In this document: positions 51,208 through 64,000 of the stretch, piece after piece
Layout: every line of letters begins with the position of its first letter
Numbering within the stretch: position 1 is the stretch's first letter
The notes under the pieces: generated by a model
Databases searched by the model: none
Told to the model about the DNA's origin: nothing
Seen by the model: only the letters and a program-made list of their open reading frames with translations
Program-made: the position numbers and the translations under genes
NCBI GenBank assembly: GCA_965207885.1
Contig: OZ242311.1
Location: forward strand, 5,696,001 to 5,760,000
DNA length: 64,000 nucleotides
From: Candidatus Latescibacterota bacterium
Lineage (GTDB): Bacteria > Latescibacterota > UBA2968
Direction: 5' to 3'

Positions 51208-51897
51208 ATGTCGGATATAATATCTCCCGTAAACGACGAGAATACAGTACAGCTCGACCCCGAGTCCCTCGTGGCGCGTATCATAGCAGAGCTTCAAGCC
51301 AATCCCGAAGCTCAAAGTCTCTTGTTGCGTGCGTTGCTCACCAACGAATTTCTCGGTATGCCGGTACGCCTTGAACGTATCGAAGCCGATGTTGCAGAAC
51401 TCAAAGTGGATGTTGCCCAACTCAAAGTAGATGTTGCCCGACTCAAAACGGATGTCGCTCACCTCAAAGGCGACAGCCTTGAAGTGAAACTCCATCGCAG
51501 GATTCGCCCCTTGCTCAGCCAAAGGCTCAACCTGCGCCGCGCACAGGTCCTGCAAAGCCCCATCCAGGACACCCACGCTGAGTTGTATGAGCCAATCGAA
51601 GCAGCTTTTGACGAAGGTCGCATCACAGACGCGCAGGAAACCCGCATCCACGTAACTGACCTCATAATTCGCGCCCAGCGCAAAGCGGATCGCTCGCCGG
51701 TGTGGGTAGCAGTTGAAGTGTCCAACGAGATTCACCGACGCGACCTGGACCGGGTGCGTCAAACGGCCGATGCGTTGGGTGTGGTCTTCCAAACGTCTGT
51801 CCTCGCAGTCGTTGCAGGATATCACATTGCACCTCGGGATCAAGCGCGTGCCGAAGAGTCCGATGTTCACACTCTTCTCATTGCAGAGAATAACTAA
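51208..51897 (+). CDS. Hypothetical protein with heptad coiled-coil repeat and PD-(D/E)xK-like C-terminus
   Basis: VAELKVD/VAQLKVD/VARLKTD/VAHLKGD; TDLII...VAVEVS...DLDRV. Confidence 0.7.
   Translation: MSDIISPVNDENTVQLDPESLVARIIAELQANPEAQSLLLRALLTNEFLGMPVRLERIEADVAELKVDVAQLKVDVARLKTDVAHLKGDSLEVKLHRRIRPLLSQRLNLRRAQVLQSPIQDTHAELYEPIEAAFDEGRITDAQETRIHVTDLIIRAQRKADRSPVWVAVEVSNEIHRRDLDRVRQTADALGVVFQTSVLAVVAGYHIAPRDQARAEESDVHTLLIAENN
51388..51471 (+). repeat. Coding tandem repeat, 4 x 21 bp
   Basis: GATGTTGCAGAACTCAAAGTG / GATGTTGCCCAACTCAAAGTA / GATGTTGCCCGACTCAAAACG / GATGTCGCTCACCTCAAAGGC. Confidence 0.85.
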
Positions 51898-52281: not shown

Positions 52282-52309
52282 TTGAAACTTTAGAGGTACT
52301 GGTTATACT
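52282..52309 (+). promoter_or_regulatory. sigma70-like promoter of the CARF-activator gene
   Basis: TTGAAA-16nt-TATACT. Confidence 0.5.
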
Positions 52310-52324
52310 ACAAAAGTCAATGCA

Positions 52325-54031
52325 ATGTCTCAAAAGGATAATGATATGCAACACAAATTGGTCGCTGTAGTCGGCAACACACCGCAAGTTATGACAGAAA
52401 CGTTTTGGGCATTGTACGACGGCAAAGTGCCCATCGATGAAGTATATGTGATAACCACAACGGTAGGACAAAAAACCTGTCAGAAACGCCTTTTGGACGA
52501 AGGACGTTTTGAAAAGATGCTGTTGGATTACAATATCGCCCCTAACACCGTCGCATTCGGTCCCGATCATATCTATGTATTTGAAGACGCCGAAGGCAAT
52601 TTTTTAGACGATATTCGCACCTCAGAAGACAATCGCATTGCGCGAGATGGCATTTTTCAATTGATAGAAACACTGACGCATGACGATCAAGTGGCGTTGC
52701 ACTGCTCGCTTGCCGGTGGAAGAAAGTCTATGGGCTTTATACTGGGAGCAGCCATTCACTTTTTTGGGCGACCACAAGACCGACTTTATCACGTTCTGGT
52801 TTCTATGCCCGAGATTGAGAGAAGCGATGCATCCTATTATTATCCACCAGAGAAACCTGAACCGATTATGGTGTTTAATCGCAGTACAGGTCGAGAAGAA
52901 CCTCTAATTGTCAATGGTCAGAAAGTCATGAGCGATGCTGTGAGCATTGAGTTGGCGGACGTACCATTTTGTCGATTGCGCGATGTGGTGCAGTTTGTAG
53001 CACCCGGACAATACACCGAAGACACCCTGAGATTGACACAACAGGCAGTCAATGATTACGCAAAGCAGATGCGAGAGGCGTATATAGACCAGGTCGCATC
53101 GGGCGCAGAAGATGCGTTTCCAGAAATCATCGGTCAGAGTGACAGCATTCGGGATGTTAAGAATAGCATTAGACGATACGCGCCTTATAGTCATTCAGTA
53201 TTGATCACAGGTCCTACTGGATCTGGCAAAGACCTCGTTGCTGCTGCACTGCACAAAGCGAGTGATCGGACAGGGAAATATCGCCCAGAAAACTGCGCCA
53301 GATTGGGAGAATTGGCGGAAAGTCAATTGTTTGGTCATGAAAGGAATGCATTTACGGGCGCAAACAAGCAGTATCGAGGTTTGTTTGAACAAGCAAATAA
53401 TGGCACGCTCTTTCTCGATGAAATCAATTCGCTTCGCCCCGATATCCAAGGCATGCTTTTGCGGGTCATGGAAGATGGTGTGATAAGACGAATGGGTAGT
53501 GATAAAGCTATCCCGGTAAATGTGCGCCTTGTTGCCGCGACCAATGAAGATCTGGATACAGAGGAGAGCGGATTTCGAGGCGATCTTCTTGGCCGTTTTT
53601 CTTTAACCATTGCGTTGCCGCCGCTAAAAGACAGGCGGGAAGATATTCCATTACTTGTCCATCACTTTTTGAAAAGTTTTTCAGAAGAGTATGGAAAAAA
53701 TTTCGCGGGTTTTACGGAAGAAGCCATGCGCGCATTGCAGGCTTATGATTGGCCCTACAATGTCCGAGGGTTAAAGACTGCTATTGAACGGGCAGCTATT
53801 GTGACGCCAGAAGATCAATGGATTACGCCCGATGTGTTATTTGAGCAAAAGGATGCGGATATATTTCAGGGTTCGTTCGACGAGCAAGTGGCGCAATTAG
53901 AGAAAAAACTCATACAAGACGCGCTGGCGCAGAAGGGCAGTATTACACAAGCTGCTAAGATGTTAGGTATGGAGCGGTCAAAGCTGAGTAGAAGAGCTAA
54001 AAAATATGGCTTGACTGAGAAGGCGTCGTAA
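52325..54031 (+). CDS. CARF (Cas_NE0113/SSO2081-like)-sigma54 enhancer-binding AAA+-Fis HTH fusion regulator
   Basis: N-terminus VGNTPQVMTET, VITT, LDDIRTSEDN, LHCSLAGGRKSMG, QDRLYHVLV; centre GPTGSGKD, ESQLFGHERNAFTGA, TLFLDEI, RLVAATN, LPPLKDRREDI; C-terminus ITQAAKMLGMERSKLSRRAKKYG. Confidence 0.9.
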   Translation: MSQKDNDMQHKLVAVVGNTPQVMTETFWALYDGKVPIDEVYVITTTVGQKTCQKRLLDEGRFEKMLLDYNIAPNTVAFGPDHIYVFEDAEGNFLDDIRTSEDNRIARDGIFQLIETLTHDDQVALHCSLAGGRKSMGFILGAAIHFFGRPQDRLYHVLVSMPEIERSDASYYYPPEKPEPIMVFNRSTGREEPLIVNGQKVMSDAVSIELADVPFCRLRDVVQFVAPGQYTEDTLRLTQQAVNDYAKQMREAYIDQVASGAEDAFPEIIGQSDSIRDVKNSIRRYAPYSHSVLITGPTGSGKDLVAAALHKASDRTGKYRPENCARLGELAESQLFGHERNAFTGANKQYRGLFEQANNGTLFLDEINSLRPDIQGMLLRVMEDGVIRRMGSDKAIPVNVRLVAATNEDLDTEESGFRGDLLGRFSLTIALPPLKDRREDIPLLVHHFLKSFSEEYGKNFAGFTEEAMRALQAYDWPYNVRGLKTAIERAAIVTPEDQWITPDVLFEQKDADIFQGSFDEQVAQLEKKLIQDALAQKGSITQAAKMLGMERSKLSRRAKKYGLTEKAS

Positions 54032-54055
54032 GTATCACGGGTAAAAGGCGAGCAA

Positions 54056-54076
54056 AATTGCACATCGCGTGCAATT
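54056..54076. promoter_or_regulatory. Palindromic candidate upstream activator sequence
   Basis: AATTGCAC-ATCGC-GTGCAATT perfect 8-bp inverted repeat about 180 bp before the sigma54 box; related half-sites at 54069-54082 and about 54140-54153. Confidence 0.6.
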
Positions 54077-54251
54077 CTACACACTGGCCCGACATGCTGG
54101 TATGGTAGTGGTTTTCTCGTTTTTTATTTACCAAACGTGTGTATATTTGCACGATTGAACATATCGTTGTCCATTTCCTGTTTGAAAAAAATATCACACA
54201 ACCTGTTGTTTTTTTTGATCTCTGAGGAAATTCGGAGATTTTTTTTGTGTT

Positions 54252-54267
54252 TGGCACGCGATTTGCA
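54252..54267 (+). promoter_or_regulatory. sigma54 (RpoN) -24/-12 promoter of the cas operon
   Basis: TGGCACG-CGAT-TTGCA, exact match to TGGCACG-N4-TTGCW, 47 nt before the cas6 ATG. Confidence 0.88.
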
Positions 54268-54314
54268 GATACAATGAGAGCTATCGCAAAATTCCAGATA
54301 CAAAGGAGATACTG

Positions 54315-55286
54315 ATGTTTACACTCGAATTCGCGTATATGCGCCTGCATTTCAAGGCGCGAGAGCATTTGCGCCTGCCACCCTATAAAGGCTCCACATT
54401 TCGCGGGGCTTTTGGCGTGGCATTTAAGCGTGCGGTTTGTATTGTGCAACACGGCGAGTGCGAACGGTGCCTGGTTCGGACCCAGTGCGTGTATCCATAC
54501 ATATTTGACACACCTGTAGATAATGCACAGGGCATCTTCCGCGGGTATAGCGAGGCACCCCATCCCTATCTGATCGAACCCCCACTGGAGACCAAAACCG
54601 ATTACACACCGGGCGACGACTTTGCCATTGGTCTGACCCTGATAGGCCGGGTACTGAATTACATGCCCTATTTCATCTATACATTCCAGCGAATGGGAGA
54701 CACAGGTATTGGACGAGGACGCGGCAAATGCGATCTCATTTCAGGCGAAGCACTGCACGCGGATGGAACCTGGCAGGCGGTGTACGACGGAGCGAGCGAA
54801 GTGTTGCAACAAGATGTACCCCATCTGACCGCGCAAGATCTGATACACAACGAAATAGGATCTCGGATTCGCCTCTCATTTGTAACGCCCACACAACTCA
54901 AAGCAGACCGGATATTGCAGCGCGGATTGGATTTTTCCGTGCTCATACGCGGGCTATTGCGGCGGTATTCGGCATTGGCCGCATTTCACGCAGACGGACC
55001 GCCAGATATAAATTATGCCGACTACATCGCGGCGGCAGAGAATATTCAAACCACATCCCACAACTTGACCTGGCGCACATGGCAACGGTATTCAAACCGC
55101 CAGAACCGACGCATGAGCGTGAGTGGTTTTACGGGAGATGTGGTCTTTGAAGGCGACATGACACAATTCCACCCCCTGCTGGCTCTGGGTGTGCCGATGC
55201 ACGTTGGCAAATGGACCAGCTTTGGGATGGGACAATACAAGTTTTATCAATCCACAATCAACCGAATGGATGAACAACATGGGTAA
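54315..55286 (+). CDS. cas6: CRISPR pre-crRNA processing endoribonuclease Cas6
   Basis: GSTFRGAFG, CERC...C.Y, PHPYLIEPP, FVTP, HVGKWTSFGMG glycine loop; RBS AAGGAG. Confidence 0.92.
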   Translation: MFTLEFAYMRLHFKAREHLRLPPYKGSTFRGAFGVAFKRAVCIVQHGECERCLVRTQCVYPYIFDTPVDNAQGIFRGYSEAPHPYLIEPPLETKTDYTPGDDFAIGLTLIGRVLNYMPYFIYTFQRMGDTGIGRGRGKCDLISGEALHADGTWQAVYDGASEVLQQDVPHLTAQDLIHNEIGSRIRLSFVTPTQLKADRILQRGLDFSVLIRGLLRRYSALAAFHADGPPDINYADYIAAAENIQTTSHNLTWRTWQRYSNRQNRRMSVSGFTGDVVFEGDMTQFHPLLALGVPMHVGKWTSFGMGQYKFYQSTINRMDEQHG

Positions 55287-55629
55287 TCAAGCCAATCAAG
55301 GGTACGATAAATATTATTCTGAAGACAGCTTCTGGAAGAAGTTGCTCAACTTTGCACGCACCGCGGGCCGGGAAGTCGTCGAGAATGCTCTGTCGCTCTA
55401 CTACACTGCCCAGGCACCTGACACACCAACCTGGGCCAAAACGGTCATCACCGGGGCACTGGGGTACTTTATTCTTCCGGCCGATGCAATTCCCGACCTG
55501 ATTCCTGCTGTCGGTTACGGCGATGATCTGGGTGCGCTGGTCGCGGCACTTGCAGCCGTGGCGGCTCATGTGACACCTGAGATCAAAGCCCGCGCAAAAG
55601 AAAAAGCAGCCGAGTGGTTTGGTGAATAA
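55279..55629 (+). CDS. YkvA/DUF1232 family small membrane protein
   Basis: YSEDSFWKK, ALGYFILPADAIPDLIPAVGYGDDL. Confidence 0.85.
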   Translation: MGNQANQGYDKYYSEDSFWKKLLNFARTAGREVVENALSLYYTAQAPDTPTWAKTVITGALGYFILPADAIPDLIPAVGYGDDLGALVAALAAVAAHVTPEIKARAKEKAAEWFGE

Positions 55630-55648
55630 ATGGTATAGGAGATGTATC

Positions 55649-56788
55649 ATGCGCTTTGTTCTATCAACCATTGGTACAAGCATCTTGACAAATTTCATCG
55701 ATAAAACAAATTTTGGTGAAGCTAAATGGCAGGGTATGCTACGGGATTCGGCGAATCTCAAACCAGATGAATTATCGCATGAAACTACAGAAGTGATTGA
55801 AACACTCGTTGACCGGGCATTGACGCAACTCCTAAGAGATGATGTAGCTACCAATCGCCGGATTAGTGCCGAATTGAACGGTATCTATGGTATTTATGAA
55901 GGTCAATTGCCTCATAACAGTCGAGACCAGCACTATCTCATCTGCACTGACACTGCCCAGGGACAGAAGACGGGCAAACTGATTCAGGATTTTCTTGAAA
56001 ATAAAGGGTTTGTCGCAGGTATTGTTACGCCTGATAGACTTTCAACACAAGGCCCGGAATCTTTCACCACAGGTACAAAAGACCTTATCCGCTGGCTGGA
56101 GGAAAACGTGCCGTGGCGACGCGATGTGGGCTATCGCGTAATCTTCAATCTCGTTGGTGGCTTCAAAAGCCTACAAGGTTATATGAATACTTTCGGTGCT
56201 TTTTACGCCGATGAGGTCATTTATATATTTGAGGCACCAACTGCTGACTTAATCAAAATTCCGCGTCTGCCAATTCAGATTGATACAACCGTGATTCAAA
56301 ACCATCGGGTGCAATTTGCGATGATGGATGCTGAAAAACTGTATCCTGTTGAGGAACTCGAGGGGATTCCAGAAACACTGCTTGAATTTATAGAAGAGAA
56401 AGGCCAGACTTATGCGGGATTATCGGCGTGGGGCCAGTTGATCTGGAACCTCACGAAATCGGATTTATTGACAAAAAAACTATTGCATTTTCCACGATTG
56501 GGATATGGAAAAACTTTCAGGGATGACTTCGACAATCAGAATGATTCCAGGAAACGTCTTAAACTGCAAGAAACCCTGGCAAGGGTCTCATATCTACTTG
56601 AACAGAACAATGGCAACCGGGCACTGCTTATGCGAGATGGTGGACTGCAATTTGAAAAATTTACCAATAGAGAGAGTATTTACAAATTCCGCATTGATCG
56701 CACTATCCGCGTCAGTTGCTCGGTTTCTGAAGGTGGATTGATCCTTCGGCACTATGGACATAAAAATGTCGTGTACGAAAATCCATAA
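55649..56788 (+). CDS. cami1: CARF (APE2256/SSO1393-like)-RelE fusion, Cami1-like cOA-activated mRNA interferase
   Basis: STIGTSILTN, SAELNG, TDT..G, FNLVGGFKS, YIFE, LIKIPRLP; RelE-like tail GGLQFEKF...YKFRID..IRV...LRHYGH. Confidence 0.78.
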   Translation: MRFVLSTIGTSILTNFIDKTNFGEAKWQGMLRDSANLKPDELSHETTEVIETLVDRALTQLLRDDVATNRRISAELNGIYGIYEGQLPHNSRDQHYLICTDTAQGQKTGKLIQDFLENKGFVAGIVTPDRLSTQGPESFTTGTKDLIRWLEENVPWRRDVGYRVIFNLVGGFKSLQGYMNTFGAFYADEVIYIFEAPTADLIKIPRLPIQIDTTVIQNHRVQFAMMDAEKLYPVEELEGIPETLLEFIEEKGQTYAGLSAWGQLIWNLTKSDLLTKKLLHFPRLGYGKTFRDDFDNQNDSRKRLKLQETLARVSYLLEQNNGNRALLMRDGGLQFEKFTNRESIYKFRIDRTIRVSCSVSEGGLILRHYGHKNVVYENP

Positions 56789-56863
56789 AAAGGATAGAAA
56801 GACAATGGATTACCTACACATTATCATATTCTTATCGCTATATACAAAGGAGGTCTTCGCATC

Positions 56864-58483
56864 ATGGCCTGCGAATCGTTTGTCATCGTAATTGATACCC
56901 CTTCTATCAAGAGGTATGTATTTGGAACCGACCCCTTAAATGAGATACGAGGTGCGAGCGCACGTTTAGATTGGCTAAATCGAATCAAAATGGAAGAACT
57001 TTTGTGTGAACACCTCAGTAAGGCAGATGTAAAATCGATTTACGCCAATGGTGGTTCGGCACAGTTTTTAGTTCATGAGAGTGACAACCTCACTGTGAAT
57101 ATGGCCTGTACAAATATGGTTCGGTATATCCGCAATCAAACGGGTGGCGAAGTCCGGGCAGTTTATGGTATCGCACCGCTCAAAGACGAAGCTTCCTATC
57201 AAGAGGCGGTGCATAGGGCACATTTTCAGTTGCGCTGTCAACGCGAATTTGGGACCAGCTACCGCAGTGCGTCTTTAATACCGACCATGATGGAATGTCA
57301 ATCAGCCTCGCATCTGCCCGCGGCTCATATTGTGAATCGAGGCGCAGATGGTATAGGCATGTTATCTAAGGCGAGTTACCAAAAGGAACTGCGGGGGCAT
57401 GAAGCCCGCCGTCATGGACTCTGGGACGGATGGATGGATCACTTGAAAACCACGGGACCGTGGCCAGGAGAGGAGCAGTGGAATAAACTGCGGTGTAAGA
57501 GCATGACAGATATAGGTGACCACTCGTCATGGCGCAACTACATTGGCGTGGTTTATGCCGATGGAAATGCCATGGGACAAATTGTCCAAGCACTCAATCA
57601 TCCAGAGACATTCCGCCAATTTAGCGAAATTGTTGATAATAGCATTCGACAATCATGTTTCACCGCACTCAGCCAAATTTTCCAGACTGAAATCGAAAAC
57701 ATTCGGGAGGCTTTTGAACAAAACCGCCGCTTTGAACACCTTGCCGCCGATATTCTGCTCTTGGGAGGAGATGATTTGCTGGTGGCCGTACCAGCTAACT
57801 CTGCACTCGATTTCGCCTTGAAGGTCACAGAAGAATTTGAACGCTTGACACAAGAGAAAATTGCTGCCCTGAAAGACGCAGAATCTCGGCAGTTCTTCCG
57901 CGACCGACTTGGGGATCGGGGTTTCACAATTTCTTGCGGTGTTGCCATAGCAAAAAGCAACTATCCCTTTTACCTGTCATTGGATCTGGCCGAGCAATTG
58001 TTGAAAAATGCCAAACGGAAAGACAGCTATGGGGCACAACTCGAAACACCCGGTGAAGCTCGCATTGACTTTCATGTTGTGACTGGTGCGAATAGCCATG
58101 CCCTCAAAGAGGTTCGTGAAGAAACCTATCAGATAGCAAGCAATGCACGCCGCACGCTCAGACCCTTGTCTTGCCCCCAGTTGGAATTACTGCACAACAG
58201 TGTACAGAAACTACGCAACGTGAAATTTCCACATAGCAAATTGCACGAACTTCGAGAAGCAGCACTGGCAAAAACGGAGAATCAAGCCGACTGGCGCATT
58301 CGCGACATTTTCGTCCGGTGTCGGCATGATCGAAATAGCTCTGAACGTCGTGCATTGTGGCAAGCGGTGCATAACCTGTGCCCCCAGGGATATACGTTTG
58401 ATTTTCCCTGGTTCATAAAAAATGGCCAACGCCTTCTGTGTGTAGCGGACATAGTGGATATTTACAACTTATTCCGAAAATAG
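56864..58483 (+). CDS. cas10: Cas10 (short, no HD domain; intact GGDD palm)
   Basis: DTPSIKRYVF...EIRGAS, YANGGS, YADGNAMG, LLLGGDDL, ISCGVAI, AEQLLKNAK, IDF. Confidence 0.9.
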   Translation: MACESFVIVIDTPSIKRYVFGTDPLNEIRGASARLDWLNRIKMEELLCEHLSKADVKSIYANGGSAQFLVHESDNLTVNMACTNMVRYIRNQTGGEVRAVYGIAPLKDEASYQEAVHRAHFQLRCQREFGTSYRSASLIPTMMECQSASHLPAAHIVNRGADGIGMLSKASYQKELRGHEARRHGLWDGWMDHLKTTGPWPGEEQWNKLRCKSMTDIGDHSSWRNYIGVVYADGNAMGQIVQALNHPETFRQFSEIVDNSIRQSCFTALSQIFQTEIENIREAFEQNRRFEHLAADILLLGGDDLLVAVPANSALDFALKVTEEFERLTQEKIAALKDAESRQFFRDRLGDRGFTISCGVAIAKSNYPFYLSLDLAEQLLKNAKRKDSYGAQLETPGEARIDFHVVTGANSHALKEVREETYQIASNARRTLRPLSCPQLELLHNSVQKLRNVKFPHSKLHELREAALAKTENQADWRIRDIFVRCRHDRNSSERRALWQAVHNLCPQGYTFDFPWFIKNGQRLLCVADIVDIYNLFRK

Positions 58484-58497
58484 AGAGGAGTTTACCC

Positions 58498-59235
58498 ATG
58501 AAATCCCAACGCCTAAATTTGTGCTACCACATTATTTGGCAAGGACGCTGGCATGTTGGCAGCGGCTATCAGTCGGCAGTGGCGGACCGCTTGTTGCGAC
58601 GACTACCCAATAATGCACCATTTGTTCCTGGCTCTCAGATCAAAGGTGTTCTGCGCCATCAATGCGAGCGGTTGGCACTGGCCCTTGATCTCAAAGTGAT
58701 CAATCCCCATGCTGGCATTGAAGAAGACGAACAAAATCTGATCAAGCATTTTACGCCGTTAAAAAAATCGGACCTGATGGTCGATAGGTTATTTGGCAGT
58801 CGCTATCAGGGAGAGTGCCTATTTGTGACGAATGCGGTGCCGATGTCGTCTGCAGAGAAAAGTATGACTTCCGTACAGGCACGCACAGCCATTGATCGCG
58901 TCACGGGGACTGTGATGGAACAACACTTGTTTACAACTGAATTGACAGAGGGTGATGTCAACTTGCGAGGAAAAATACGCGCACGGCATCCTGCTGGTGT
59001 TCTGACACAAGATGAAGATGGCTTTCCTTGGGAGTATGCCCTTTTGATAGCAACCCTGCTGTCGCTGGATGCTCTCGGCGGCGATAAGAGTCTTGGCCTC
59101 GGGCGGTGTGAGGTCCAAATCGAACCAGAGTCGTTGTATTGGAACGACCAACGCATTTCGTTAGATGAAGCTCTTCAAAGTTTTCAAGAGGAAGACTGGG
59201 GCGAGTGGGTAGATATTTTGCGTGAGGAGTCATGA
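58498..59235 (+). CDS. cas7: Cas7-group RAMP (Csm3-like)
   Basis: WHVGSG, PFVPGSQIKGVLR, RLFGS, TAIDRVTG, LGGDKSLGLG. Confidence 0.85.
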   Translation: MKSQRLNLCYHIIWQGRWHVGSGYQSAVADRLLRRLPNNAPFVPGSQIKGVLRHQCERLALALDLKVINPHAGIEEDEQNLIKHFTPLKKSDLMVDRLFGSRYQGECLFVTNAVPMSSAEKSMTSVQARTAIDRVTGTVMEQHLFTTELTEGDVNLRGKIRARHPAGVLTQDEDGFPWEYALLIATLLSLDALGGDKSLGLGRCEVQIEPESLYWNDQRISLDEALQSFQEEDWGEWVDILREES

Positions 59236-60482
59236 TGAGAAAAAAAATACCTTTGACAGCACAATTACTTGCGCCAGTAGCTATCAAACGCGATCGACAA
59301 TCCGAACGTTCTGGAGGCGTGCATTCTATGGCTGGTACGATGGTTCGCGGTGCCCTAGCTGCTCTCTATTTACAGCATCATGGAGAAGTAGATGATACCT
59401 TCAATCATTTGTTCTTAGATGAGAATTCATGTCGATTTGGACCATTGGACCCCGGTCCGCGCTGCTTCCCATTAACTACCGCGGAGTGCAAACGGGAAGG
59501 AATAAAACATGCCCTCGTGGACCAACTGTGGTTTCGGATCGCCCAACACTACCTGACTGGCAGTGTGCCAGATAATGCCGAAACGCCCTGGCGTCAATGT
59601 GACATATGTAAAGCCGACTTGAAGAACCTGAACGGCTTTTGGGAAAAAGAAAACGGTCGTCTGCAGGAAAAAAGTAATGAGCGGCAACAGGTCGCCGCCC
59701 ATGTTGGCATTGACCGTCACACCACCACCGCGGCGGAATCAATATTGTACACCCTTGAAGCCTTACAGCCTTCCGGTCAAGAGGAAGACCTGTACGGCTG
59801 GCTCATGGCTGACGACGATGCGCTTACTGCCTTGAAACAACTCTTGCAGAATGAAGATTACCGCATCTCGGTGGGCCACCATCGCACGCGCGGTTACGGA
59901 GATCTGCGCTTACAGTTGGGCAATCCTGTGGAGAAGAATGATTCACAGCCGCGCATAGAAGATTGGGAACAATGGAGCCGCGATCTGATTGCGTTTCTGA
60001 GTTCACCGCCGCTTTCCATTCCCGATCTCGATCCAGATGATTTTTACTTTAGTTTGTCGTTTCCCACTGGCGCAGTGTTTGTGGACCGCTTTCTGTGTTA
60101 TACTCTCGATCCAGCAGACCTGATTTCATGGTTGTCGCCTATGCCTTCTGCAGATGCCGCGTTTCCAATTCAGAATCGTCCGACCCGACAACTCGCATCA
60201 GGGGGCACAATGTGCTGGATCGCTGCCGTAACCCGACATGAGCGTTTGCGCGGCTGGAATGCAGCTCACGGCTTGCCGCGTCAGGATGAATGGGCCGTAG
60301 TACGAGGGTCAGTCTATGTTTACCGCTTTACAGGCACGGCCACAGAACGCGAGACACTCATTGAACAACTTGCAACCTTGTCCGAAGAAGGCGTCGGTCT
60401 GCGGCGCAATGAAGGCTTTGGCATGGTGATCGTGTCCGATGATTTCCATCGCCAATTTTGCAAACAGGAGGTGCAATCGTGA
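59232..60482 (+). CDS. csx10: Csx10 (Cas5-group RAMP of type III-D)
   Basis: GTMVRGALA, HVGIDR, VG..RTRGYG, GWN....PR, GSVY, GVGLRRNEGFG. Confidence 0.8.
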   Translation: MMRKKIPLTAQLLAPVAIKRDRQSERSGGVHSMAGTMVRGALAALYLQHHGEVDDTFNHLFLDENSCRFGPLDPGPRCFPLTTAECKREGIKHALVDQLWFRIAQHYLTGSVPDNAETPWRQCDICKADLKNLNGFWEKENGRLQEKSNERQQVAAHVGIDRHTTTAAESILYTLEALQPSGQEEDLYGWLMADDDALTALKQLLQNEDYRISVGHHRTRGYGDLRLQLGNPVEKNDSQPRIEDWEQWSRDLIAFLSSPPLSIPDLDPDDFYFSLSFPTGAVFVDRFLCYTLDPADLISWLSPMPSADAAFPIQNRPTRQLASGGTMCWIAAVTRHERLRGWNAAHGLPRQDEWAVVRGSVYVYRFTGTATERETLIEQLATLSEEGVGLRRNEGFGMVIVSDDFHRQFCKQEVQS

Positions 60483-60904
60483 TCGTCTTGAACACCGGTT
60501 TGATCCAAAAAGTTGATCTCTACATTGACGAGAACCATAAAACATTTTCAGAACTGGGAGATCGTTTCTTTGACGTATTTAGCTATGACAAACGGAATGA
60601 TCGCATTAATACGCAAATCCGGAATCTGCAACAAATTACCTGCTCCGCTACGCGCTTTGCGGATATCGAAGATTTTGTAAAAAACCAAATGGGAAAAGAA
60701 GAAACTAAAGACCCCAAATGGAAGAAAGTGGGAGACAGCACCTTAAAAAAATTAAAGGAGTTGCGCGACAAAAGCCAGGAATTTGATTCCGATCCCGCTA
60801 ACCAGATGGCACTGCGTCTCCGTCTCGCTCGTGGTTGGGTGCGTGCCGTAGTCAGTCAGTATCTCTATCGCGTTGCATGCGATCAAATGGGAGAGAGGCC
60901 ATGA
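60479..60904 (+). CDS. Cas11/Csm2-like small subunit
   Basis: Helical; TQIRNL, FVKNQMGK, W; position within the effector operon. Confidence 0.6.
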   Translation: MIVLNTGLIQKVDLYIDENHKTFSELGDRFFDVFSYDKRNDRINTQIRNLQQITCSATRFADIEDFVKNQMGKEETKDPKWKKVGDSTLKKLKELRDKSQEFDSDPANQMALRLRLARGWVRAVVSQYLYRVACDQMGERP

Positions 60905-61422
60905 CATGCGTTGATTTACTATCTGATACCACCTACTGTGAACAGGCTGTTCAACAACTGGATCGACTATTGGGTGACATGAATCAATTCCCCGTAAAGC
61001 GCACGCAGATCTACGGCCTGCGACAAATCGCCCAGCAACAGCCCAGAGAAATTCAAGGATTTGCCAATCATCAGCGCGAGCGTGCCCAGCGCAAGCAGGA
61101 AAACGCCTCCGAAAACACCAAACCGAGATACCAGCCTGAAATCGATTTCTGGGCTCTGGTGGCCGATTTGTGCAGCAATTCGAGTTCTAATTGGTCTGTG
61201 GAAGAGGAAGGACACACCCATCTTCCTGAAGAACTACAAAATATTCCGGCAAGGCGGAAAGGCATGTCACATGAGGAACAACGGTATTTAAACGAACTCA
61301 AGAGGCATCGAAGGGAATTACTCGAACAATGGACAAACGAGCATATTCCAGCGTTTTTTGAACGGTTTTGTACACACGCTTTATACCGCTTGGGAAAGCA
61401 AAAAAACTCGAAAAAGGAGTAA
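60901..61422 (+). CDS. Second small helical protein, possibly Cas11-like
   Basis: TQIYGLRQ, FANHQ, FW; ATGA-coupled to the upstream gene. Confidence 0.5.
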   Translation: MTCVDLLSDTTYCEQAVQQLDRLLGDMNQFPVKRTQIYGLRQIAQQQPREIQGFANHQRERAQRKQENASENTKPRYQPEIDFWALVADLCSNSSSNWSVEEEGHTHLPEELQNIPARRKGMSHEEQRYLNELKRHRRELLEQWTNEHIPAFFERFCTHALYRLGKQKNSKKE

Positions 61423-61425
61423 AAC

Positions 61426-62277
61426 ATGACGAATGACGATGCATTGGCTGCCAGTTTTGGATTGAGACAAAAGATCCGACTTACTGCATCTCTTGTGTTT
61501 GATACTGCATGGCGCATTGGATCTGGTAAAGAGGGCGAAACCATGAGTGATTTGGGTGTGGTGCTTGATCCTATAGGTCAACCGGTGCTTCCAGGTTCCT
61601 CTCTCAAGGGAAAATTGCGAAGCACCTGTGAAACTCTGTCACATGCGCTTGGGTTGAGAGCCTGCATGTTGAATCACAACGCAAGCGGTGTCAAATGCAC
61701 AAGTGATGTGAACTATTATCGCACTGTTCGTGAAACATATCAGGAAGCATTGCAAAAGGGGTTACAGGATCGCCTGCAATGGATTGAAGAGAACACCTGC
61801 GACGTGTGTAAATTATTCGGATCACCAATGCAGGCAAGCCGGCTTTGTATAAGCGATGGCCTGCTTAAAGAATGGGCCTCTATTGTGCAAGTACGCGATG
61901 GCGTCGTGATTGACCGCGATAGCCAGACAGCTGTCAATGGTCTTAAATACGACTATGAAGTTGTTCCGCCCGGTAGCCGATTTAAAATTTGTATTGATCT
62001 CGAAAACCCAACTGACCAGGATGTGGCCTTACTCGGTGCCGCTTTATTTGAATGGCACTCTGGTAGCAGTATTGGAGGTTTTACAAGCCGTGGACTTGGA
62101 CGCTTTCATCTGGAGGATATTCAGCTTGTCGGTGTTGACATGGCCGACAGTGAGCAACGCATGAAGTTCCTGACCGGGAAAAAGGCTAAAGATCGTCTTT
62201 CTGATTGGGACAGTTGGGATATCTACTTCACCAGGTACATCAAACAGCAATTAGAACCTGATACTCAGGAGGATTAA
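61426..62277 (+). CDS. cas7: Cas7-group RAMP (Csx7-like)
   Basis: WRIGSG, PVLPGSSLKGKLRS, CDVCKLFGS, RDGVVIDR, IGGFTSRGLG. Confidence 0.88.
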   Translation: MTNDDALAASFGLRQKIRLTASLVFDTAWRIGSGKEGETMSDLGVVLDPIGQPVLPGSSLKGKLRSTCETLSHALGLRACMLNHNASGVKCTSDVNYYRTVRETYQEALQKGLQDRLQWIEENTCDVCKLFGSPMQASRLCISDGLLKEWASIVQVRDGVVIDRDSQTAVNGLKYDYEVVPPGSRFKICIDLENPTDQDVALLGAALFEWHSGSSIGGFTSRGLGRFHLEDIQLVGVDMADSEQRMKFLTGKKAKDRLSDWDSWDIYFTRYIKQQLEPDTQED

Positions 62278-62279
62278 CC

Positions 62280-63236
62280 ATGTTGCGGAAATGGCTTTGT
62301 CAAGCCGATGTAAAAATTGCCATCGAACCGGTTGATCCGGTGTTGATTAAGAGCGGCTATGCTACCAGAGATGGTGCAGATATGGTGCCAGTATCAACAT
62401 TTAGAAATGAGGAGAGAATCTATTACTTTCCAGGAACATCTCTCAAAGGCGTGTTGCGTAGCCATTTGGAGCGAATTGCCCGTACCTTGCAGCAAGGTAG
62501 TGTGTGTATTCCCTACTATCGAAATAACAGCACCCCAATACCTGTTGCAGCGGAACAGCACGCCCATGGCTGCGGATTTCGTTCACGAGGTGGAAGGAAT
62601 GGAGAGGCTACATCGGCCAGGTACGCGGATTCGTGCGCCATATGTCGGTTGTTTGGCTCACTGAAATTTGGCGGACGTTTTAGCGTTGGAGATGCCTACC
62701 CCTTGCCGGACCATAAACCCACTTTAGAATCGCGCAACGGAGTGGGTATTGACCGTTTTACAGGTGGATCGGTATCAGGTGCTTTGTTTGACCTGCAAGT
62801 TCTGGTCGGCGGTAAATTTGAAGCAAATCTACGGTTGACAAATTTTGAACTCTGGCAATTGACCGCTCTCAATCTATTGCTTGCCGATCTACAAGATGAG
62901 ATGATTACCATAGGTTCGGGACGAAGTAGAGGTCTCGGGCGCGTGCGCGGCACTGTCACTTCGTATTCTTTAACCTATGTACAGGAGGAAAGTCATCTCG
63001 AAGGTTTATATCAACTCGCAACCTCGGAGGAGCAGCAAGCCTACCGGTTGCACGACTGGAAGCCCGATAGTCCGATTGAGCTATCAACGCCTGAGTCGCA
63101 TGGTTTGCGGCAGGAATACGATCTGAGTTCCGATTGGCTCCAGCATTTGCAACCGCTCGTTCCAGCCTTTGAGGCATTTTTGCGGTGGCACGGCGGACCT
63201 CAAGGGCAGATATCCCAACAAGGGGATAGGTCATGA
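62280..63236 (+). CDS. cas7: Cas7-group RAMP
   Basis: PVLIKSG, YFPGTSLKGVLRS, CAICRLFGS, RNGVGIDRFTGG, IGSGRSRGLG. Confidence 0.88.
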   Translation: MLRKWLCQADVKIAIEPVDPVLIKSGYATRDGADMVPVSTFRNEERIYYFPGTSLKGVLRSHLERIARTLQQGSVCIPYYRNNSTPIPVAAEQHAHGCGFRSRGGRNGEATSARYADSCAICRLFGSLKFGGRFSVGDAYPLPDHKPTLESRNGVGIDRFTGGSVSGALFDLQVLVGGKFEANLRLTNFELWQLTALNLLLADLQDEMITIGSGRSRGLGRVRGTVTSYSLTYVQEESHLEGLYQLATSEEQQAYRLHDWKPDSPIELSTPESHGLRQEYDLSSDWLQHLQPLVPAFEAFLRWHGGPQGQISQQGDRS

Positions 63237-63826
63237 CTACCTTCTTAAAAACGGCGGATTTGACACCAGATCAGTTTCTCGATCTGATTACCAATCTCGA
63301 CCACGATGACACACCCCAGCAACGGATCTGGCTGGAAACACCTGATGGTTGGGCCTTCAATTGGTGGTGCGGCCTGGCTGGCGACCTCTCTTGGTGTGGT
63401 GCAGGCCGCGAGCCGGTTGAAAAATCTGCCCGTGATTGTCTGACCCGATCTACCTCCGGGCGATTGTTTGCGCCTGACGGTGAACTGCGCTGGCGCGTTA
63501 TTCCCTCTCTGGGGGAATCGTGCTGGCGTACCGTTTTCCTCGGTAACGCCGATTGGGTGGGTACTGCATTAAACGACTACTCAGATAAACTACATGATCT
63601 GCATCCACATCAGGACAGCTTTTTTTTGTGGGGCCAGCAAACCGATGAGACACCGAATGAGTGGATTGAACTACGTATTCCACATCGCTTCAATTATCCG
63701 ATTAGCGATAACCCTCGCAGCGTGAGCGTTGTTGTTGAGCAGTGGAGCGACGATGCCGGTGAGCCTCACTTTGTCCGATTGTGTGATCTCAAACCCTATC
63801 AGGAGAACAGTGATGCCGCAAGGTGA
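63233..63826 (+). CDS. csx19: Csx19 (type III-D)
   Basis: GRLFAPDGELRWR, FLWG, ELRIP, FVRL; position before the large Cas7. Confidence 0.7.
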   Translation: MTTFLKTADLTPDQFLDLITNLDHDDTPQQRIWLETPDGWAFNWWCGLAGDLSWCGAGREPVEKSARDCLTRSTSGRLFAPDGELRWRVIPSLGESCWRTVFLGNADWVGTALNDYSDKLHDLHPHQDSFFLWGQQTDETPNEWIELRIPHRFNYPISDNPRSVSVVVEQWSDDAGEPHFVRLCDLKPYQENSDAAR

Positions 63827-64000
63827 AAATTTCTGGAATCCTTATCGCTGGGTTACCATCAGCGATCAACCCGTCGAATACGACGACCTACCTTATCAAC
63901 ATGTAGTGAACGACCTTTCCGGCCGTATCTGGTGCGAACTTGAAGCCCTGACGCCATTCATCGTCGGTGACGGACATGGAATGTTTGTCAAGCATTCCCA
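63813..64000 (+). CDS. Large Cas7-with-insertion RAMP of type III-D (5' part; runs off right edge)
   Basis: Manual translation MPQGENFWNPYRWV...LSGRIWCELEALTPFIVG; FxNPY and L.TP motifs. Confidence 0.75.
   Translation, partial: MPQGENFWNPYRWVTISDQPVEYDDLPYQHVVNDLSGRIWCELEALTPFIVGDGHGMFVKHS

Follow-up and report, generated by a model that had tools for sequence, protein, structure and literature searches.

What switches on the type III-D CRISPR-Cas operon of a Candidatus Latescibacterota bacterium, in which a gene joining a CARF sensor to a sigma-54 activator and a sigma-54 promoter box precede cas6? We addressed this question in a 64,000-nt stretch of one 6.2-Mb host genome (contig OZ242311.1, positions 5,696,001 to 5,760,000), hereafter the window, whose positions are used for feature coordinates unless genome positions are named. 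The box before the cas operon is referred to as P1, a box before the DUF1232 gene in relatives as P2, and a box before PrimPol-cas1-cas2 as P3; the strict box pattern is TGGCAC-N5-TTGCW. A first-pass annotation of this DNA had proposed that cyclic oligoadenylate (cOA) made by Cas10 turns on the activator, which then upregulates the whole cas operon. Judged from its sequence, the protein is very probably a sigma-54 activator whose targets are P1, P3 and, in relatives, P2. That cOA, probably cyclic tetra-adenylate (cA4), activates this bacterial enhancer-binding protein (bEBP) and so drives the type III locus is the explanation we favour, with moderate confidence.

The fusion described in the first-pass annotation, an NE0113-type CARF domain followed by a sigma-54 AAA+ domain and a Fis-type helix-turn-helix (HTH), was borne out by profile searches and by motifs read directly. 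In Pfam, the activator open reading frame (ORF; 52325-54031) matches Cas_NE0113 (PF09623, 1.4e-34) at residues 19-222, Sigma54_activat (PF00158, 2.8e-49), AAA_lid_14 (1.5e-22) and, at its C-terminus, the Fis-type HTH_8 (1.7e-09). TIGR02584 of NCBIfam matches at 3.6e-49 (167.6 bits, against a cut-off of 80.65) and the PADLOC profile CARF5--CARF at 3.3e-66; PADLOC-DB 2.0 holds no full-length model for the fusion. The start codon is likely M8 at 52346, giving 561 aa, which is also the length of the database cluster representative. The AAA+ domain carries the Walker A motif GPTGSGKD, the loop NAFTGA and the Walker B motif LFLDEI. In a set of 100 homologs with lengths of 480 aa or more, the CARF motifs G-[NS]-TPQV-TET, AGGRKSMG and DDIRT are near-invariant, and so are the Walker A and B motifs, the x-A-[FY]-T loop and the arginine fingers of the AAA+ domain. 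The sigma-54-contacting loop reads NAFTGA in the window and GAFTGA, GAFTDA, GAFTNA or GAYTGQ in relatives, the F/Y-T core being kept. Other features by which a bEBP is recognised are found both in the protein (Sigma54_activat family, Walker A and B motifs, arginine fingers, HTH) and around it (predicted upstream sites, a box, and RpoN in the host).

The exact box that had been noted ahead of the cas6-led operon is unique in the window and conserved in relatives. It lies 221 nt past the activator stop; the cas6 ATG is 48 nt further on, and a Shine-Dalgarno sequence stands between the box and this ATG. Taken alone it is weak, as 0.11 exact boxes are expected by chance in the window and at least one appeared in 10 of 100 shuffles; its strength comes from its conservation in relatives. 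Three predicted activator sites precede it, each within one mismatch of the 14-bp motif GTGCA-N4-TGCAC, the tolerance allowed in all our site counts. The palindrome reported earlier after the activator gene (TTGCAC-N5-GTGCAA, 54058-54074) is indeed present as a single exact copy in the window, and is better read as the inner halves of the sites at 54050 and 54069. A weak hairpin with a T-run ends 4 nt ahead of the P1 -24 element and probably insulates P1 from activator-gene read-through; a different hairpin with a T-run occupies the same place before P3. The activator's own sigma-70 promoter, also claimed earlier, stands as a candidate only: a 10/12 match is present, with four such sites found against 4.3 expected.

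The conservation of these elements was followed in relatives from two sources. In the phylum, 19 of 168 species genomes have a match to the window CARF, and 16 regions were fetched, comprising L101-L111 with a full-length fusion, L112 cut by a contig end, and L113-L116 with an unfused CARF protein. The same search gave a further fusion, L097, whose contig stops just 3' of the gene. A separate genome scan with a full-length alignment brought in, through its Walker A pattern, 80 loci (L002-L081) that were left out as generic enhancer-binding proteins, since they match only at residues ~190-568. In a metagenome scan at least 592 stretches matched, and 80 loci with NE0113-type CARF genes were taken; among the matches listed, 79 of the 80 are unfused and Csx14-like, and were used as controls, and one, L118, is a fusion, fetched after the motif and spacing had been defined.

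A box lies 137-280 nt past the activator stop in 11 of 11 full-length loci (eight exact, three with the single mismatch TTGCG), and this position 3' of the activator is kept whether the next gene is cas6 or DUF1232. None of the four unfused phylum loci (L113-L116) has a box with at most one mismatch, and the 79 unfused metagenome loci (829,533 bases) together contain a single exact box, which is distant from the CARF gene and on the opposite strand. The predicted binding sites cluster in front of the boxes: the 6.0 kb within 300 nt upstream of them contain 39, the rest of these loci (236 kb) contains 11, and the 830 kb of unfused controls contain 22. Before P1 they recur at 202, 183 and 113 nt; the 202-nt position is shared by L101, L102, L103 and L111, and a site at 103-113 nt before the box is found in nine of the 12 other fused-activator loci examined. 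Five relatives (L101, L102, L103, L105 and L106) have a second exact box, P2, directly before DUF1232, with sites 133 and 112 nt upstream of it. The window is without P2 because there cas6 and DUF1232 abut, the true start of DUF1232 (ATG at 55279) overlapping the cas6 stop.

Site pairs spaced 14-45 bp apart occur only twice in the host genome, both times before exact boxes beside CRISPR genes. One pair belongs to P1; the other is at genome positions 5773361-5773394, ~13.4 kb past the window end. The latter sites, 138 and 118 nt before the P3 box, are followed by the hairpin and T-run, the exact box TGGCACGCTTTTTGCA (~13.5 kb past the window end), one degenerate CRISPR repeat and a sigma-70-like site. 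Downstream are genes for a TPR-PrimPol protein (PADLOC 'adaptation polymerase' 6.2e-79; Pfam AEP-TOTE 3e-46), cas1 (1.5e-100) and cas2 (8.7e-24). P3 is conserved in L105 and L110. The host genome encodes one copy of rpoN (TIGR02395, 424.2 bits, above cut-off) and contains 17 strict sigma-54 boxes; ~30 further tblastn matches to the AAA+ domain were found in it, and one CARF fusion only.

The metagenome fusion L118 is 46% identical to the window protein in the CARF part and 43% in the AAA+ part, has the canonical GAFTGA loop and lies in DNA high in G+C. Its site GTGCAGCGGTGCAC and a one-mismatch second site are 205 and 184 nt before the box TGGCATTGCGCTTGCA, which has one mismatch and is 280 nt past the activator stop, and the genes that follow are a small ORF, cas6, Csm1, Csm3, Csm5 and cas1. 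The survey of homolog neighbourhoods that had been suggested as a check of the circuit therefore came out in its favour: relatives are tied to type III cas genes, conserved -24/-12 boxes and upstream sites, and rpoN is present.

It could be argued that the box and palindromes are kept for other reasons or by descent, the cas operon being transcribed from a sigma-70 promoter and the activator regulating unrelated genes. The shuffles that yield an exact box by chance would agree with this, as would the kinship of most supporting loci. However, the layout recurs at P2 and P3 with different flanks, in another family and in the distant L118; the paired sites are found nowhere else in the 6.2-Mb genome; and no sigma-70-like site above chance was seen within the operon. 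We regard this explanation as highly improbable.

Some further features of these promoter regions were recorded. An integration host factor (IHF) site at P1 was rejected, as inspection by eye gave no consensus match and only an A/T-rich tract. The sequence AATCAATATGTTA, on the reverse strand ~60-75 nt before the P2 box of the five relatives, appears to fit the IHF consensus. Just after the P1 box, L102, L106 and L110 share a ~40-nt insert containing CTGTCAGAATCAGGATGGGCAGG, which moves cas6 further from the box and resembles a small element of mobile or repeat origin. At the position of the degenerate repeat of P3 (host region L117 14361-14560, L117 being the fetched host-genome region that continues past the window end), L105 has a repeat-spacer-repeat unit with a palindromic 'spacer', and the transcript of such a mini-array could be a regulatory RNA.

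Which ligand the sensor binds was approached through its fold and pocket. The CARF-domain model has a predicted local distance difference test (pLDDT) score of 89.3, and its best PDB fold matches (E 2e-06 to 2e-05) are the Sis0455 and Sso2081 Crn1 ring nucleases and the Cad1 CARF with cA4 or cyclic hexa-adenylate (cA6). According to the Sso2081 paper, Thr10/Ser11, Glu17, Asp75 and Gly104-Arg105-Lys106 of that enzyme hold or cleave cA4; the aligned activator residues, numbered from M8, are N11/T12, E18, D89 and G125-R126-K127, all invariant or nearly so in sets of 34 and 100 sequences. By alignment, then, the pocket residues match those of cA4-binding Crn1 and Cad1 CARFs. Modelled as a homodimer, the CARF domain scored 0.71 against 0.00 for the best of three controls, the dimer mark being one reached by 20 of 30 proteins solved as one-chain pairs and by 1 of 23 solved as single chains. 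Three runs agreed in at least 35% of contacts, with a partner pLDDT of at least 82, and the two-fold axis runs through the GGRK motif; the pass may nevertheless stem from resemblance to CARF dimers of solved structure. At the end of the CARF model, a 28-residue helix (residues 225-252) leads into the AAA+ domain. The CARF type, the conserved pocket, the constant linkage to cOA systems and the presence of Cami1, from a family of cA4-activated effectors (PMC11229360), together suggest that the ligand is cOA made by Cas10 and that it is activating.

An alternative is that the CARF senses a ligand not made by Cas10, as RtcR does, and would signal damage instead of the recognition of a target. The reported signal of RtcR-type CARF activators is tRNA halves that end in a cyclic phosphate (PMC7790460, PMC10159003), RtcR homologs before CoCoNuT defence operons are predicted to respond likewise (PMC11090510), and the two RNases of the present locus would make such ends. 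Against this, the earlier view that the sensor differs from the RtcR type is upheld: there is no RtcR N-domain among the Pfam matches of the activator, the NCBIfam RtcR model aligns to residues 231-545 only (score 241 bits, cut-off 650), and the PADLOC RtcR models cover the AAA-HTH part only (model positions 135-480). Neither rtcB nor rtcA lies beside the activator gene, which has cas6, DUF1232, Cami1 and cas10 downstream and an unrelated gene upstream. As the pocket keeps the residues that hold cA4 in Crn1 and the nearest folds are CARFs bound to cA4 or cA6, we think a ligand from another source quite unlikely.

The family of the sensor raises a different possibility, that the protein is an ordinary sigma-54 activator whose CARF serves mainly as a ring nuclease or cOA sponge, with the AAA+ domain uncontrolled and transcription set otherwise. 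PF09623/Csx14 proteins have been grouped with the Crn1 ring nucleases (PMC12409355), TIGR02584 is a ring nuclease by its NCBIfam name, and the fusion is, on sequence comparison, a rare offshoot of a large CARF family. The CARF-domain relatives number 2488 at 50% clustering; most of the best 150 are ~360-400 aa long, the length of Csx14-like proteins, and CARF without AAA+ was found by Pfam in seven of 10 checked from these 150, including both of the two that were ~360-400 aa long. About seven of the best 150 are fusions, P0033, P0039, P0069 and P0111 by precomputed Pfam domains and P0306, P0347 and P0257 by our own Pfam search. When a large protein collection was searched with the CARF part, 159 proteins reached E <= 0.001, and PF09623 and PF00158 are both present in 107 of 120 homolog clusters among the matches listed. 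The fusion is thus kept with both halves conserved, which is hard to explain without coupling, and the CARF sits at the N-terminus, the regulatory position of enhancer-binding proteins. Since the activator also has Thr in place of the catalytic Ser (Ser11 of Sso2081), we consider a sensor that only removes cOA very unlikely; ring-nuclease activity in addition to signalling may occur, as the first-pass annotation had imagined.

The mechanism that we favour, activation by cOA, can be set out as follows. As a dimer or higher oligomer, the activator would bind the 14-bp sites found ~110-205 nt ahead of sigma-54 promoters; its CARF dimer would bind Cas10-made cOA, most likely cA4; and the AAA+ ring would then assemble and open the sigma-54 promoter complexes. 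P1 would drive cas6, DUF1232, Cami1, cas10 and the RAMP genes. Across the ~13 kb from cas6 to the CRISPR array we found no plus-strand terminator and no above-chance sigma-70-like site, and since no clear terminator intervenes, P1 probably also drives a CARF-HEPN RNase gene and the array; P3 would drive PrimPol-cas1-cas2. Recognition of target RNA would in this way raise CRISPR RNA (crRNA) processing, interference, effector dosage and spacer uptake together. The domain architecture, the boxes, the site pattern, their conservation and rpoN are all read from the sequence; from these we infer cOA as ligand, activation rather than repression, binding to these sites, and positive feedback.

The earlier proposal that the whole cas operon is upregulated needs amending, as the set of genes under the box varies between loci and P3 would add PrimPol-cas1-cas2. 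The same type of cas6 stands beside the CARF gene in all 16 fetched phylum loci, in either of two gene orders among relatives, activator-cas6-DUF1232 or cas6-activator-DUF1232. In four of 11 full-length loci (L104, L107, L108 and L109) cas6 is upstream of the activator and outside the sigma-54 unit; the first gene after the box is DUF1232 in the first three of these, not in L109. DUF1232 was found only beside fused activators. The type III modules downstream are of four kinds, all on the same strand: III-D modules like that of the window (L101, L103), a fused-RAMP form of III-D with a TIGR03986 RAMP, a Csx10 fusion and Csx19 (L102, L104, L107), III-B modules with Cmr1, Cmr2, Cmr3, Cmr4 and Cmr6 (L105, L106), and III-A modules with Csm1 to Csm5 (L108, L110). 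A cassette that works with III-A, III-B and III-D modules suggests a portable regulatory unit.

More tentatively, the system might be a third, ATP-driven route from cOA to transcription, in which the whole locus forms an all-or-none sigma-54 regulon and DUF1232 is a new effector; we hold this bolder version to be doubtful but conceivable. Such a regulon would extend from crRNA processing and the Cas10 complex to both toxins (Cami1 and HEPN), the array and the adaptation genes for PrimPol, Cas1 and Cas2, and DUF1232 would be supplied by induced transcription and not by allosteric activation.

Several observations weigh against cOA-driven activation through these promoters. Of the 12 genomes with a full-length fusion, eight are from a single genus, within which the promoter-cas6 segment is far better conserved than the activator (between the window and L105, cas6 is 94% and the activator 48% identical); this disparity suggests recombination rather than independent conservation, and much of the conservation of P1 may reflect recent shared ancestry or recombination and not selection. 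By this sequence evidence, the independent support is that of the other family (L104, L107-L109), P2, P3 and L118. The binding-site motif was derived from the same loci in which it was counted; L108 has no site within one mismatch, and at P1 of L106 and L110 the palindrome is a variant. In L109 the box is followed by unrelated genes (PvdO-like, ankyrin), with Csm1 12 kb further on. The canonical GAFTGA is replaced, by NAFTGA in the window and by GAYTGQ in many relatives, and the Thr at the Crn1 catalytic position departs from the ring nucleases that the pocket otherwise resembles. Finally, there is a start-up problem, in that a strictly activator-dependent promoter leaves no Cas10 and no signal. 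As a silent sigma-54 promoter provides no Cas10 for the first signal, there must be another source of basal expression; this could be read-through of the weak hairpin, or the initial cOA could come from a second type III locus. Such a locus is present at genome positions 4078589-4095396; it is of the fused-RAMP III-D form, with its own cas6 of the other subtype, a Csm6-like gene and Csx19, and neither a CARF activator nor a strict sigma-54 box was found near it.

The start-up problem would vanish if the sign were opposite, that is, if the activator were on without ligand and cOA switched the locus off, limiting Cami1 and HEPN toxicity by negative feedback, because Cas10 would then be present before infection. 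The long helix leading from the CARF into the AAA+ domain in the model would permit this, since in NtrC1 and DctD such a linker reportedly lets the regulatory domain control ring assembly in either direction, and a ring-nuclease-like pocket would then restore expression. On the other hand, for most characterised enhancer-binding proteins the signal is an activating one, published accounts of RtcR link its CARF to operon activation by the signal, and the dedicated sigma-54 promoter of DUF1232 in five relatives fits an induced function better than a housekeeping one. We judge the opposite sign unlikely and retain activation by cOA as the preferred explanation.

The genes of the operon and the elements before it are collected in the table. 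Profile searches agree with the order cas6-DUF1232-CARF/RelE-cas10-RAMPs given at first sight, and the type III-D assignment is supported by Csx10 (below its cut-off), Csx7 (above cut-off) and weak Csm2 and Csx19 matches; with the GGDD Cas10, the Csx7-type Cas7 and an adjoining CRISPR array, these are the features by which we assign the type. The intact GGDD can be read in the 539-aa Cas10, which has no HD domain, its palm domain beginning the protein directly. Naming the third gene cami1 also proved sound: besides the CARF7--CARF_RelE profile, the AlphaFold model (pLDDT 89.3) matches Cami1 structures 8phj/8phb in Foldseek at 4.6e-17, and its C-terminus matches RelE/YafQ toxins. We had considered this 379-aa protein as a Sis0811-type ring nuclease, and rejected it since the sequence matches cover the CARF part only, while profile and fold favour CARF-RelE.

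Table. Features of the activator gene, the promoter region and the cas operon, in window positions.
Feature	Coordinates	Strand	Evidence or remark
Candidate sigma-70 promoter of activator gene, TTGAAA-16-TATACT	52282..52309	+	10/12 consensus matches
CARF-bEBP gene	52346..54031	+	Pfam, NCBIfam, PADLOC profiles, motifs, CARF fold model
CARF (PF09623), then long linker helix	~52379-52990	+	within CARF-bEBP gene
Sigma-54 AAA+	53126-53602	+	within CARF-bEBP gene
AAA lid	53627-53845	+	within CARF-bEBP gene
Fis-type HTH	53888-54007	+	within CARF-bEBP gene
Predicted upstream activator site 1, GAGCAAAATTGCAC	54050..54063	.	202 nt before -24 box, one mismatch
Predicted upstream activator site 2, GTGCAATTCTACAC	54069..54082	.	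183 nt before box, one mismatch
Predicted upstream activator site 3, GTGTATATTTGCAC	54139..54152	.	113 nt before box, one mismatch
Weak hairpin and T-run, terminator-like	54217..54248	+	10 pairs, 3 G-C; -12 kcal/mol, z -2.26
Sigma-54 -24/-12 box P1, TGGCACGCGATTTGCA	54252..54267	+	sole exact TGGCAC-N5-TTGCW in window
cas6 (PF10040 type)	54315..55286	+	Pfam 4.6e-19, PADLOC Cas6 7e-100
DUF1232 small protein, two moderately hydrophobic segments	55279..55629	+	Pfam
Cami1-type CARF-RelE effector, 379 aa	55649..56788	+	PADLOC CARF7--CARF_RelE 1.8e-127 over full length
Cas10, 539 aa, short form	56864..58483	+	GGDD intact
RAMP protein	58438..59235	+	Pfam 3e-19
Csx10-type RAMP (type III-D signature)	59232..60482	+	TIGR02674 8.4e-40, below curated cut-off
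Small-subunit candidate, Csm2/Cas11-like	60458..60904	+	PADLOC Csm2 III-D 4.3e-05, weak
195-aa protein, kept in L101	60835..61422	+	no family match (Pfam, PADLOC)
Csx7-type RAMP (Cas7)	61426..62277	+	TIGR02581 1.4e-38, above cut-off
RAMP protein	62280..63236	+	2.6e-26
Csx19-like protein	63233..63826	+	PADLOC 1.2e-04, weak
Start of Csm3/Cas7-type RAMP gene (395 aa), cut by window end	63729..64000	+	continued in L117

Beyond the window, the 395-aa RAMP gene is followed by one for a 423-aa CARF-HEPN RNase of the Csm6/Csx1 type (PADLOC CARF1--CARF_HEPN 7e-86; Pfam Csm6 HEPN 4.5e-28), and then, on the strand of the operon, by a CRISPR array in which a 37-nt repeat ending in ATTGAAAC occurs 33 times. 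A group II intron ORF (reverse transcriptase, maturase and HNH domains; L117 5602-7386, minus strand) divides the array into 25 and ~8 repeats, and the second type III locus contains a copy of it with 50% identity (genome 4083279-4084952). Between the array and the adaptation operon are genes for two dynamin-like GTPases and a PIN toxin pair (L117 8933-12818 and 13271-13950), probably an inserted defence island. On the other side, the gene upstream of the activator is a divergent ORF of 370 aa with no known family, inside which is a 21-nt tandem repeat of 3.9 copies (51388-51469).

Two observations concern the loci of relatives. In L102 (6968-9505), an 845-aa RAMP of the TIGR03986 family has an N-terminal cold-shock domain (CspA/CspE-like, 6.9e-14), by its sequence an RNA-binding module fused to a type III backbone protein. 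A gene predicted to encode an AAA-ATPase_like domain with a PD-(D/E)XK nuclease (PDDEXK_9) precedes cas6 in L104 (51-1466) and also in L108, L109 and L112.

Most of what is known of type III CRISPR signalling concerns the allosteric activation of effectors that are already made, and transcriptional outputs are already known for Csa3 and CalpL/CalpS. If our explanation is true, a switch-like, ATP-dependent amplifier would couple target recognition to the amounts of Cas complex, toxin and adaptation proteins, and the RtcR design would have arisen with a second CARF family. The cis-elements (sites at fixed distances, -24/-12 boxes, hairpin insulators) are precise enough for direct testing, and a cOA-responsive promoter system could serve as a biosensor. 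An NE0113-type CARF-sigma-54 activator fusion in a type III locus was not found in the literature searched, which yielded only CARF activators of the RtcR type and did not extend to supplements, where an earlier listing is possible.

Among known systems, the closest in kind are the RtcR-type CARF activators. RtcR and RtcR-like proteins share with the window protein an N-terminal CARF, an NtrC-type sigma-54 AAA+ domain, a C-terminal HTH and a gene position at the 5' end of the operon, and RtcR homologs have already been predicted to control defence operons, including restriction-modification (R-M) and CoCoNuT systems (PMC4012209, PMC11090510). Their CARF, however, is of another family than PF09623/NE0113 (CARF5--CARF), their neighbours are rtcBA, R-M or McrBC genes where the window activator has type III cas genes with a GGDD Cas10, and the ligand expected from sequence is cyclic-phosphate RNA for RtcR and cOA for the window activator.

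In function, the nearest counterpart is Csa3, in which a CARF sensor is likewise coupled to DNA binding and to regulation of cas genes in response to cA4. Csa3a is said to activate adaptation genes. The recognition of cA4 by Csa3 and its regulation of CRISPR and DNA repair genes are described in PMC8699464 and PMC8844856. Whereas Csa3 consists of a CARF and a winged HTH, without an ATPase and acting on ordinary promoters, the window protein has an AAA+ motor, a Fis-type HTH and sigma-54 promoters, and interposing the motor and sigma-54 would give an all-or-none switch, unlike Csa3. In CalpL-CalpT-CalpS, a cA4-activated Lon protease releases an extracytoplasmic function (ECF) sigma factor (PMC11229360), so that here too a type III cOA signal reaches transcription through an alternative sigma factor pathway. 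That system relies on a SAVED sensor, anti-sigma proteolysis and an ECF sigma factor, whereas in the window the sensor is fused to the activator itself and would work through the housekeeping RpoN with no protease or anti-sigma factor. In sequence family and fold, the closest proteins are Crn1/Csx14 and the Cad1 CARF, with which the phosphate- and base-binding residues are shared; these stand alone or are fused to a deaminase, while the window CARF, with its Thr for the catalytic Ser, is fused to a transcription motor.

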